Shown piece by piece: positions 47,091-49,732 of a stretch of DNA of 64,000 nucleotides (the stretch's first letter is position 1; each line of letters starts with the position of its first letter). The DNA lies in the sequence record PZ295659.1, one strand, 5' to 3'. The DNA comes from a phage. The notes beneath the pieces are model-generated. The model made no database searches. It saw only the letters and a list, made by a program, of their open reading frames with translations, and had not been told where the DNA came from. The translations under genes and the position numbers were made by a program.

Positions 47091-47327
47091 TTATAGTGTT
47101 CCATATACTCGAGTTGCTTCAACAAGACCATCACTGCCTAATTTAAGATTAGTAATTTGGTCACCATCTTTAGGATTAACGATTATGAGAAAAGAACGTG
47201 GAGATTCTTGAATAACTCGTAATGTTGCATCCTGGAAACGTTCAGACACTTTATTGATGAGTGCTTGAGCGAATTCTTTTACTTTAATCTGAAATTCGTG
47301 TACTGTAATTGGATTTTCACTTAGCAT
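47091..47327 (-). CDS. hypothetical early protein (78 aa)
   Basis: ORF with an early promoter upstream; first gene of the transcript that continues into the DAHP synthase and cd. Confidence 0.45.
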   Translation of the reverse strand: MLSENPITVHEFQIKVKEFAQALINKVSERFQDATLRVIQESPRSFLIIVNPKDGDQITNLKLGSDGLVEATRVYGTL

Positions 47328-47354
47328 TTCGATTTCCTCATTTTAGTAGAGTTA

Positions 47355-47384
47355 ATCATATCACAACTCTACTGTGTTGTAAAC
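47355..47384 (-). promoter_or_regulatory. early promoter (GTTTAC-N18-TATGAT)
   Basis: Minus strand reads GTTTACAACACAGTAGAGTTGTGATATGAT. Confidence 0.5.
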
Positions 47385-47660
47385 TTAAATTGCAAAACAT
47401 TTAATTTCTTGTGAATCGAAATCAACTTCACATTGAATTACTAGATCAGCGTCAAGTCCAAACACAACAATCACATGAGCCGAGCTTGGCAACAGTGTAA
47501 CAGACACAGAATCCACTTGGTCCGGGACCAGAGTATTCAAAACGTAAAGTAGTTCAGAGTGGACCTTAAGCTCAGTAGCCGTATCCGGCTTATCAAAGAA
47601 ATGATTTGCGATAATCTGACTAAAAACTACCTTTACAATTTCAGAATATTTAGGGAACAT
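47385..47660 (-). CDS. hypothetical protein (91 aa)
   Basis: ORF in the cd-pseT accessory interval. Confidence 0.45.
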   Translation of the reverse strand: MFPKYSEIVKVVFSQIIANHFFDKPDTATELKVHSELLYVLNTLVPDQVDSVSVTLLPSSAHVIVVFGLDADLVIQCEVDFDSQEIKCFAI

Positions 47661-47667
47661 AATTACC

Positions 47668-47892
47668 TCAGTGTACAGTATTTACTTTAACTCGAACAAC
47701 AAATTGCTCGGTCGGTTCACCTACAGGAACAAACTCTACATGATATTCACCTTTGTAACGAGTATTCAGGTCGTTACGAATTTCGGTAAGCTTGTTGATT
47801 AATGTAGAACTCATATTAAGTCCCACTAGTTTACGAAGCATTTTGTATGCTTCATCTTCGATTTCATGATGTTTATCGTACATAGTTTTCAT
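47668..47892 (-). CDS. hypothetical protein (74 aa)
   Basis: ORF in the cd-pseT accessory interval. Confidence 0.45.
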   Translation of the reverse strand: MKTMYDKHHEIEDEAYKMLRKLVGLNMSSTLINKLTEIRNDLNTRYKGEYHVEFVPVGEPTEQFVVRVKVNTVH

Positions 47893-48064
47893 TTAACCAT
47901 TCAATTGCCTGGTCGACGTTATCAAATATACCGCCGTCCAAACGTTCTTCATGCTCATAGTCCAGCACATCAATACCGAACTGTCCATTTACTAAAGGCC
48001 AGGCTACAAACAAATATTCTTTATGCTGTTCGATGGCCTCAATCACTTCATATAATCGTTTCAT
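47873..48064 (-). CDS. hypothetical acidic protein (63 aa)
   Basis: ORF coupled to the pseT stop (ATGA-type overlap). Confidence 0.45.
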   Translation of the reverse strand: MKRLYEVIEAIEQHKEYLFVAWPLVNGQFGIDVLDYEHEERLDGGIFDNVDQAIEWLNENYVR

Positions 48065-48963
48065 TAAAAATCGCCATGGTTAACTTGCCAACATTCTAAA
48101 CCAATACGACGCCACATTTCCACAACCTGGTTACGGTCATCAACGGCCAATTTCACATCATAATAAGGAGCAATACAGTTCCAAAAGAGTTCTTCCTTAA
48201 CAACATCATCCTTACGAGTGTCACCTTGATTACGTTGAATATGCATTTCCCATGGAATAGAAAACGTGTCCATCCATTTTTTAGTTGCTTCGTAATAACA
48301 CATTGAATCTTCTTTAGTTCCAGATTCACGACCGCTTACAGTAATAATTGTATACCCGGCCTGATGAAGCATCTTAACATATTCGACAACCATAGGGTTT
48401 GGCTCATCCGTAGACAGTTTATCCAACTCATAAGGCCCGCGAGCAACATGTAGAGCTAAAGTCCCGTCAAGGTCGAAGATAACCGCTTTAGGTTTACCCG
48501 GAGTTCCTTTATAAACCGGAAGTCCTTTGTATTCACGCATACGAGAATACATCGAACGTAGAACATCGATAGGAACGGCCTTTGTGCCACGCTTGGCATT
48601 ACGTTTAACCAATTCGGTCCACGGAACATCGAACACTTGATATATAACTTCATGACCCCACTGTTTAGCGTATTCTTCCCAGACAAGACGACGTTCAGGA
48701 TTTAAGTTGGTGTCAGAAATAATAACACCCTTAGTTCCATCTTGACAGAGAATCATATGTGCCGCATCGTGTTGCATATAAGTTACGATACTTTCTTTCT
48801 TTTTAGTATATTTGTACTCGTCACGTTCTTCGTGGCCCATGATGGATTGGCGATAATCGTCGCGGTTGATATTAAAGAACCCAGGATTCTTAGCAATAAA
48901 TTCACGAGCCCAAGTGCTTTTACCAGACCCAGGACAACCTACAGTCAAAATAATCTTTTTCAT
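48064..48963 (-). CDS. pseT: polynucleotide 5'-kinase / 3'-phosphatase
   Basis: 299 aa (T4 Pnk 301 aa); P-loop GCPGSGKST at the N-terminus and HAD phosphatase motif FDLDGT in the C-terminal half. Confidence 0.9.
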
Positions 48964-49151
48964 AGTTTTACTACCTCTTCAGCAAATTCAAATTGTCCAC
49001 CAAGAATTTTAGCAATTTCACGTCCTAGTTCAGCACCTTTCTTGCAATCTTGCATAGTCCAAGAATCACCATTCTGTGATTTACGAAGAGCCCGTGTATT
49101 GATATCTGCTACAAGTGTATGGATTAACTTATCGATTTTTGCTTGGTCCAT
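48960..49151 (-). CDS. hypothetical protein (63 aa)
   Basis: ORF coupled upstream of pseT. Confidence 0.45.
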
Positions 49152-49450
49152 TATTTTATTCCTAAGAAAGTTTCAAGAATACGAATGTTATGCTCGCGCC
49201 GATCTTTGTTAATTTCAGCAACGTTTTTATTAATTGACGTACTTCTAACGTTTGAAGAAATAAATTTAATCATATGGCTTTTGAGTTGTTGCAAATCTAA
49301 CCCTTTTTCTTTAGCAGCTTTACGAAGAGCTTTACCTGCTTCATCTAGTGCCTTTGCTGCATCTTTGTCATAATCACCAAGTGACATTCCACGGCAGATG
49401 TCAATATACTCATCAGACCGTTTGATGTAATTCTCTAGTAATGTTTTCAT
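49151..49450 (-). CDS. hypothetical protein (99 aa)
   Basis: ORF with an early promoter upstream. Confidence 0.45.
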   Translation of the reverse strand: MKTLLENYIKRSDEYIDICRGMSLGDYDKDAAKALDEAGKALRKAAKEKGLDLQQLKSHMIKFISSNVRSTSINKNVAEINKDRREHNIRILETFLGIK

Positions 49451-49478
49451 TTAGATTTCCTCAATTATCCATAGGAGC

Positions 49479-49508
49479 ATTATACTCTGCTCCCGAGAGT
49501 TTGTAAAC
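49479..49508 (-). promoter_or_regulatory. early promoter (GTTTAC-N18-TATAAT)
   Basis: Minus strand reads GTTTACAAACTCTCGGGAGCAGAGTATAAT. Confidence 0.55.
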
Positions 49509-49732
49509 TATTTTACTAAAGATTCAATATACTCATGAAGAGCTTTAGTCGCTACTGCCCACTTATTCTGATATTCATTTTTCAGATTAGCACGAGACTG
49601 AACTAACAAGCGGTCGTTAGTCGGAGGCAAAGACTCTAATCGTTGAATCTGACGGCCATAAATCATAGCCGCCATTTCAGAGTCATAGATAAGTCCTTTA
49701 AGGTATTCATGCTGTTCTTTAGTCATTGACAT
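49508..49732 (-). CDS. hypothetical protein (74 aa)
   Basis: ORF between the spanin pair and the pseT-proximal genes. Confidence 0.45.
   Translation of the reverse strand: MSMTKEQHEYLKGLIYDSEMAAMIYGRQIQRLESLPPTNDRLLVQSRANLKNEYQNKWAVATKALHEYIESLVK

Follow-up and report, generated by a model that had tools for sequence, protein, structure and literature searches.

The interval of the T4 genome comprising pseT and alc is a classical deletable region, deletions of pseT/alc being viable (PMC6071114), and for most of the non-essential immediate-early proteins of this phage, collectively referred to as "monkey wrench" proteins, a mechanism is lacking (Kutter et al. 2018, PMC6071114). Time-resolved omics of T4 infection (PMC9697503, supplementary files 4 and 6) classed Cd.2 and PseT.1 as early at the level of both RNA and protein, and Cd.3, Cd.4 and PseT as early in RNA and middle in protein; in the CRISPRi-ART analysis of the same phage cd.1–cd.5, pseT and pseT.1 were all scored "Not Fit" and listed under "unknown function" (PMC11879866, supplementary files 8 and 15). 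The subject of the present analysis is the corresponding locus of the phage represented by sequence record PZ295659.1 (hereafter, the source phage), in which, within the stretch of 64,000 nucleotides that was analysed (the window), seven small open reading frames (ORFs), numbered O1 to O7 by increasing coordinate, form two islands on either side of pseT between positions 47091 and 49732.

The interpretation that we favor, with a probability of roughly 0.75, is that these islands are two blocks of ordinary small early Mosigvirus genes, whose products are likely stoichiometric binders, probably dispensable on laboratory hosts. The 4 kb surrounding the islands display, over their full length, 97–98% nucleotide identity and the same gene order as Mosigvirus PHB12, AV112 and ChristianSchoenbein, and the source phage is, on the strength of this kinship, a Mosigvirus of the RB69/PhAPEC2-like T-even type. 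All genes of the pseT region lie on the minus strand, and their order along the direction of transcription is rnlA, alc, the i-spanin gene (T4 pseT.3), the o-spanin gene (T4 pseT.2), O7, O6, O5, pseT, O4, O3, O2, O1, the DAHP synthase gene, cd, 31.1 and 31. The anchor between both islands is pseT itself (48064-48963), which encodes a polynucleotide kinase/3'-phosphatase 75% identical to T4 PseT and matching the Pfam domains HAD_PNKP and AAA_33. The seven minus-strand ORFs of 63–99 residues listed in the initial annotation were borne out by the ORF calls, and so was their lack of an assigned function, none having been found for any of them. All seven are already catalogued families and the region is an ordinary, known variable early stretch of a T4-type genome; for six of them the identical protein sequence is already present in public databases, several under RB69 accessions, O6 of the source phage being the only one without an exact match in public protein collections, and the public names are "hypothetical protein" throughout, with the exception of an uninformative "DNA metabolism protein" given to PseT.1.

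Four of the ORFs are, as judged from similarity and position, vertical orthologues of T4 cd.2, cd.3, cd.4 and pseT.1 in conserved order, and not novel accessory genes. O1 (47091-47327, 78 residues, phrog_1504), sited between cd.3 and cd, is 65% identical to T4 Cd.2 (E 1e-33) and belongs to Pfam family DUF7320 (PF24005; 121.5 bits, the cutoff being 27), with a ratio of non-synonymous to synonymous substitution rates (dN/dS) of 0.11–0.13. O2 (47385-47660, 91 residues, acidic with an isoelectric point, pI, of 4.4, phrog_1695) is 62% identical to T4 Cd.3 over its full length (E 9e-42) and is a member of DUF7355 (PF24051; 115.4 bits, cutoff 27), its dN/dS being 0.03–0.25, and 0.37 when compared with the 34%-identical Marfavirus copy. 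O4 (47873-48064, 63 residues, acidic with pI 4.3), located between cd.3 and pseT, is 52% identical to T4 Cd.4 (E 7e-26), belongs to phrog_2360 (E 2e-33) and has the exact sequence of RB69 record AAP76127.1. Finally, O7 (49508-49732, 74 residues, annotated in relatives as 72 residues with the start at 49726) is 82% identical to T4 PseT.1 (E 7e-41) and belongs to phrog_2347 (E 8e-38); between the source phage and T4 this protein is more conserved than PseT itself (82% vs 75%), and its dN/dS against Tequatrovirus is as low as 0.04–0.06. The initial description of these ORFs as devoid of any recognisable motif is therefore correct as far as function is concerned, but O1 and O2 do belong to the Pfam families DUF7320 and DUF7355; likewise, four of the seven ORFs do match cd.x/pseT.x proteins of T4, but these T4 proteins are themselves without known function (PMC11879866). 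A kinship between PseT.1 and the C-terminal domain of the phrog_4482 proteins of 160–190 residues, which occupy the same slot in other genera, was considered and rejected (hhalign probability 7.6%; best hidden Markov model (HMM) score 8.9 bits vs 8.0 for the best shuffle).

The remaining three ORFs are without a T4 counterpart in the cd-alc stretch. O3 (47668-47892, 74 residues, the conserved start being probably at 47883 to give 71 residues) belongs to the RB69ORF227c family, phrog_3609 (E 6.5e-40, the match beginning at residue 4), found in 338 phage records, those of RB69, S16, VR7, Marfa and Enterobacter phages among them. O5 (48960-49151, 63 residues, phrog_8683), for which the arn-motA stretch of T4 likewise holds no counterpart, occurs in 241 records and, at the pseT locus, is specific to Mosigvirus; its family is small, with only 5 representatives among 1.84 billion proteins, and shares a strongly conserved core (LVxDINTRAL...NG..WT..DCKKGA..GR). 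O6 (49151-49450, 99 residues, basic with pI 9.4, phrog_2364) is found in 709 phage records including T2, and adjoins pseT in nearly all of 30 sampled rows; it is present beside pseT in T2 and many T-even phages and absent from T4, and its dN/dS is 0.04–0.16. In the Tequatrovirus phages possessing O6, the gene abuts pseT.1 with neither a spacer nor a promoter.

That these ORFs are genuine genes is indicated by several lines of evidence. The match of each of the seven to a PHROG family is full-length (E between 1e-33 and 1e-49), and in each of them synonymous change exceeds non-synonymous change, the dN/dS against diverged orthologues being mostly 0.03–0.25, equal to the range of pseT, and exceeding it only where the pairs are most diverged or least informative; this substitution pattern is that of genes under purifying selection in all seven cases. 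Ribosome-binding sites of the GAGG type precede O1, O2, O6 and O7, and O5, pseT and O4 start on the stop codon of the preceding gene (TAATG or ATGA), the start of O3 being located inside the end of O4; the overlap between start and stop of so many genes suggests that their translation is coupled. Furthermore, the protein products of the four T4 orthologues have been observed (PMC9697503), so that these genes are translated, contrary to the eventuality that these ORFs might be untranslated, and the split of the T4 products between early and middle proteins fits their distance from the early promoters. The seven proteins are not paralogues of one another, a possibility raised by a blastp match between O2 and T4 Cd.2 (E 0.018), since profile–profile comparison yielded a probability of at most 5.3% for all 21 pairs.

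The early promoter consensus described for T4/PST-type phages is TTTACW-N17-TAYWAT (PMC4122927), and the two early promoters that had been recognized in the initial annotation were found at exactly the positions given. The one preceding cd.2 (47355-47384, minus strand) reads GTTTACA-N17-TATGAT, followed by GAGGAAATCGAAATG, and is the equivalent of T4 Pe133295, since it aligns base for base with the T4 cd.3/cd.2 spacer in which the T4 record annotates this early promoter; the one preceding O6 (49479-49508, minus strand) reads GTTTACA-N17-TATAAT, has 11 of 12 consensus positions and is restricted to the Mosigvirus arrangement. A third, early-type promoter (50885-50913, minus strand, TTTACA-N17-TACTAT) occupies the rnlA-alc spacer, and no other early-type promoter lies closer upstream to alc, the pair of spanin genes and O7. 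The pattern GTTTACA-N17-TATNAT occurs 3 times in the 64-kb window, 0.01 occurrences being expected, and TTTACW-N17-TAYWAT 6 times, always on the minus strand, against an expectation of 0.28.

Both promoters sit within the islands and not at their head. Of the first island, O1 alone follows the 47384 promoter; O2, O3 and O4 are upstream of it, and the closest early promoter ahead of them is that at 49508, from which O6, O5 and pseT also lie downstream. O7 is in turn upstream of the latter promoter, its nearest upstream early-type promoter being that at 50913-50885, before alc. As to the single transcript proposed for the first island with the DAHP synthase gene and cd, no terminator-like site was found on the minus strand from 50461 to 44000, so that transcription could plausibly continue into these two genes, as judged from motifs.

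The comparison of the cd-pseT and pseT-alc intervals, in which all genes were mapped in the pseT neighbourhoods of 11 annotated phages and 79 IMG/VR contigs, revealed that the enterobacterial T4-like layout is rnlA-alc-Rz-Rz1-[variable slot]-pseT-[cd.5][cd.4][O3]-cd.3-[occasional insert of 175–221 residues]-cd.2-[cd.1 or DAHP synthase]-cd. The gene content of both intervals varies between T4-like genera, so that the description of the two islands as variable accessory regions is justified at this level, but it does not extend to the four conserved T4 orthologues, the only variable members of the seven being O3, O5 and O6. Indeed, cd.2 and cd.3 are present in Tequatro-, Mosig-, Marfa- and Jiaodavirus and in Dhaka/Gapriver-type loci, and cd.2 is found also in Krischvirus, whose sampled locus has no other ORF left between cd and pseT; cd.2 and cd.3, stable across genera, behave as a backbone rather than as arms-race cargo. 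PseT.1 is found in Tequatro-, Mosig-, Jiaoda- and Marfavirus and is absent from Karamvirus and from Dhaka/Gapriver-type loci. Outside the enterobacterial T4-like phages none of the seven families was found, with the exception of O5, and comparison of viral models indicated that structural relatives of Cd.2 exist also in Aeromonas T4-like phages.

Structural models were obtained for two of the seven proteins. The AlphaFold2 model of O1/Cd.2 (mean predicted local distance difference test, pLDDT, 89.9) is a small alpha+beta sandwich, in which a helix formed by residues 9-30 packs against an antiparallel sheet of four strands, and, when compared with viral models, matches that of T4 P39498 with a template-modelling (TM) score of 0.94, the other matches being DUF7320 proteins, all uncharacterised; O6 is modelled as a four-helix bundle (pLDDT 78). 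Neither model displays an enzyme-like or nuclease fold, the fold matches being generic only. A weak match of O1 to MoaD in NCBIfam (E 0.076) and one of O6 to Pfam TnsD (16.5 bits, cutoff 32.4) both fall short of the threshold and found no confirmation in the models.

Taken together, these data suggest a mechanism in which host RNA polymerase containing sigma-70 would start at the T4-type early promoters at 50913, 49508 and 47384 and transcribe leftward through alc, the two spanin genes, O7, O6, O5, pseT, O4, O3, O2, O1, the DAHP synthase gene and cd, to yield polycistronic early transcripts whose translation would perhaps be coupled at the gene overlaps. The products would be soluble single-domain proteins of 7–11 kDa, a property that is seen in the Cd.2 and O6 models and presumed for the rest, none of them bearing an enzyme signature, and early in infection they would bind host or phage macromolecules stoichiometrically, akin to the "monkey wrench" proteins of T4. 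Such binding would be the most likely mode of action because of the small size, the single compact domains and the absence of catalytic signatures and, by analogy with T4, the seven genes are probably dispensable on laboratory hosts. Several considerations weigh against this interpretation: the binder mechanism is deduced from small size, absent catalytic signatures and analogy; the proteins modelled are two of the seven; the data on expression and dispensability come from T4 and cover only the four T4 orthologues; the structure of the transcripts is derived from consensus motifs; and the negative fitness result concerns one laboratory host and is silent on others.

The alternative that survives best is that some of the ORFs, with the variable O3, O5 and O6 as the most plausible candidates, inhibit host defence systems or host enzymes and are retained for the benefit that they confer on particular hosts, as the initial annotation had anticipated for these intervals; we regard this as possible, though clearly the less probable interpretation. 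It finds support in the patchy distribution of these genes between genera, in the position of Mosigvirus O6 and O5 directly downstream of an early promoter of their own and in the fact that the T4 orthologues can be dispensed with in the laboratory. A further case is that of O5, homologues of which, with 53–65% identity, are found at another hyperplastic locus, i.e., the motA-asiA interval of Jiaodavirus (locus record L012, 2501-2680), which in T4 holds arn, and, within the same range of identity, as the C-terminal part of a 158-residue protein of the Serratia jumbo phage Moabite (locus record L013, 1677-2153). Maintenance of such an identity across loci is what would be expected of a mobile module aimed at a conserved target; a homologue of O5 was looked for also in the arn-motA interval of T4 and none was found. 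The pattern displayed by O5, which may be a horizontally mobile module of ~50 residues, would fit a hitherto undescribed inhibitor directed against some conserved defence or housekeeping protein of enterobacteria, a speculative and rather improbable reading.

Other findings weigh against an anti-defence role. By sequence none of the seven proteins has a relative in the PDB, which would include the anti-defence proteins of solved structure, and none gave a meaningful match in NCBIfam or any match with the defence-related profiles of PADLOC; similarity in sequence or fold to known anti-defence proteins was thus not found, the folds predicted for O1 and O6 being generic and their matches uninformative, and the idea of inhibitors of host defence did not receive support from these searches. 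O6 is present in 709 records and beside pseT in nearly all sampled rows, and the four T4 orthologues are conserved, with low dN/dS, and are not fast-evolving. Furthermore, a literature link to defence was not found, one search having been swamped by "CD" as an abbreviation of Crohn's or coeliac disease; full-text searches for pseT.1, and for cd.3 in combination with cd.4, pseT and phage, yielded no paper assigning a function, and the cd-pseT-alc region goes unmentioned in the main text of two papers on accessory-gene screens.

The conserved Cd.2, Cd.3 and PseT.1 could, alternatively, be partners or regulators of neighbouring enzymes, PseT.1 acting with the PseT/RnlA RNA repair system and Cd.2/Cd.3 with dCMP deaminase or the dNTP-synthesising complex. 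Indeed, cd.2 lies between cd and pseT in every locus carrying it, from Tequatrovirus to Krischvirus, and PseT.1 is encoded a short distance upstream of pseT and, with respect to T4, is more conserved than PseT. However, the gene order of T4-type phages is conserved for many unrelated genes, so that little weight attaches to synteny, the loci of Karamvirus and of the Dhaka/Gapriver type retain pseT but lack PseT.1, and interaction data were looked for and none were found; this alternative is accordingly considered unlikely.

A homing endonuclease, or the remnant of one, was a candidate for O6, in view of the label "putative homing endonuclease" attached to an O6 homologue in the BASEL records MZ501056 and MZ501098 and of the presence/absence polymorphism beside pseT, T2 having O6 and T4 lacking it. 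This candidate is largely refuted and thus very improbable, since O6 contains no nuclease or DNA-binding Pfam domain (the aforementioned TnsD match being the best one) and no catalytic domain of the GIY-YIG, HNH, LAGLIDADG or similar type, all 36 clusters of its family are of 83–108 residues and devoid of Pfam domains, the model is a four-helix bundle and its dN/dS is that of a selected small protein and not of a decaying fragment. Least credible of all, and indeed refuted, is that some ORFs are chance open frames, as their short length (63–99 residues) and the ambiguous start codon of two of them might suggest, given the synonymous excess and full-length family matches in seven of seven and the detection of four T4 orthologues as proteins.

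Having thus retained the interpretation of ordinary early genes encoding likely binders, some features of the locus that illustrate its plasticity deserve consideration. In the source phage the DAHP synthase gene takes the position of T4 cd.1, cd.1 and cd.5 being absent, and the 120-nucleotide "spacer" separating O1 from this gene is filled by a relic (46979-47104, minus strand) corresponding to the 3' half of a second, divergent cd.2 allele. The count of seven ORFs stands for the source phage; relatives annotate here an eighth ORF of 41 residues, which in the source phage is interrupted by a TAG at codon 6. The Cd.2 family HMM scores 23.5 bits on the translated spacer vs 9.7 for the best of 2000 shuffles, and the relic aligns in register with Cd.2 of Marfavirus and Jiaodavirus, its closest resemblance; moreover, a database variant of 115 residues (P0039) consists of cd.2 fused to the relic. 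In Marfavirus the DAHP synthase gene, whose product is 67% identical to that of the source phage, directly follows cd.2, and from this adjacency it follows that the DAHP synthase cassette may have entered through recombination, i.e., by a crossover, inside cd.2. A composition signal of foreign origin was looked for and none was found, the G + C content being uniform (0.34–0.41) over all genes.

A further rearrangement is represented by the metagenomic protein P0036 (83 residues), which is an in-frame O6-O5 chimera with the junction at the ALRK motif common to O6 and O5. This motif is encoded, on the minus strand, by the 12-nucleotide direct repeat GCTCTTCGTAAA present at 49330 (O6) and at 49091 (O5), and the chimera looks like the product of a microhomology-mediated deletion. 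In several Tequatro- and Dhaka/Gapriver-type phages an ORF of 175–221 residues (phrog_5804 or phrog_3710) is found between cd.3 and cd.2, in the promoter-bearing spacer (locus records L015, 6720-7262; L017, 6634-7161; L018, 6722-7276; L025, 6549-7214); the phrog_5804-type ORF of L015 has N-terminal similarity to goF (E 1e-8), and this spacer looks like an insertion hotspot.

Some observations concern the regulatory signals and the neighbouring sequences. Inverted repeats extend across both island promoters, and the view that they are terminators or RNA structures of significance did not receive support (z -0.95 and -1.48, no U-tract); the GTAGAG...CTCTAC repeat spanning the -10 region of the cd.2 promoter is kept between the source phage and T4. 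Palindromic sequences, such as ACACATGGATGTGT, ACACCAAGGATGGTGT and CCACAAGGATTGTGG, form the -35/-10 spacers of the minus-strand early promoters at 21693-21721, 37031-37059, 50885-50913 and 52069-52097. A weak candidate for a middle promoter with a MotA-box-like element (48347-48371, minus strand, TGCTTCA-N12-TACAAT) is found inside pseT; this pattern occurs 8 times in the window vs 1.7 expected, with 7 occurrences on the minus strand; a copy is found shortly before gene 31 (45072-45096), and the copy inside pseT, conserved in Mosigvirus and absent from T4, may simply reflect coding constraint. An Rfam search of 44000-52500 yielded nothing meaningful. A plus-strand ORF of 156 residues (48742-49212), which runs opposite to pseT and O5, is probably open by chance only, the known genes there being all on the minus strand.

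In the T4 reference, cd.2 appears to be frameshifted near its 5' end (locus record L003, about 5240-5275) with respect to all other phages, in that the conserved MLSEKPITV start of Cd.2 is in another frame and the T4 record annotates a GTG start. Inspection by eye of the guide sequences suggests a 1-nucleotide insertion, which would be either a mutation of the T4 strain or a sequence error.

As it stands, the region matters little, being a textbook variable early region in which every ORF is catalogued without a function. Its value lies instead in the shortlist that it offers, since Cd.2, Cd.3 and PseT.1 are conserved, expressed and dispensable early proteins whose roles have been open since the sequencing of T4; O5 and O6, on the other hand, constitute a small early unit, confined to Mosigvirus and served by a promoter of its own, which would be cheap to test, and the cd.2 relic and the O6-O5 chimera are concrete cases of how short homologies reshuffle such regions.

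Finally, the locus can be compared with the systems known in T4-type phages. The likeness to the T4 "monkey wrench" class, i.e., small early proteins from a deletable region, is one of size and setting, the class being a descriptive one and not a homologous family. The islands share with the promoter-early stem-loop (PeSL) cassettes known from T4-type phages (Arbiol et al. 2010, PMC2839356; Comeau et al. 2014, PMC4122927) the presence of strong T4/PST-type early promoters in variable-region spacers beside variable ORFs; the promoter at 49507-49479 is an exact TTTACW-N17-TAYWAT, that at 47383-47355 has one mismatch (TATGAT), and both are followed by a near-identical ribosome-binding cassette, with a 19-nucleotide repeat common to the two. 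They differ from these cassettes in that the terminator stem-loop that defines PeSL is not evident at either promoter of the source phage, where the inverted repeats coincide in part with the -10 region, have no U-tract and are not more stable than shuffled sequence to any significant extent (see above for z). The 49508 promoter, found in Mosigvirus only, and the shared 19-nucleotide repeat would represent indirect signs of PeSL-type recombination and ORF shuffling.

With the cd-pseT/pseT-alc region of T4, whose proteins are listed as uncharacterized in UniProt (P39498, P39499, P39500, P39502), the locus shares the four orthologues, their order and strand and the cd.3/cd.2 early promoter. T4 differs in having cd.1 and cd.5, absent in the source phage, in lacking O3, O5, O6 and the DAHP synthase gene, and in that its pseT.1 directly abuts pseT with no promoter between the two. 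The closest correspondence is that with RB69 and the other members of Mosigvirus, whose gene content and order are identical and under whose RB69 accessions the exact O4 and O5 sequences are found; with respect to these phages the source phage displays point differences only, including those that make its O6 inexact in the collections and the TAG in the 41-residue relic ORF.

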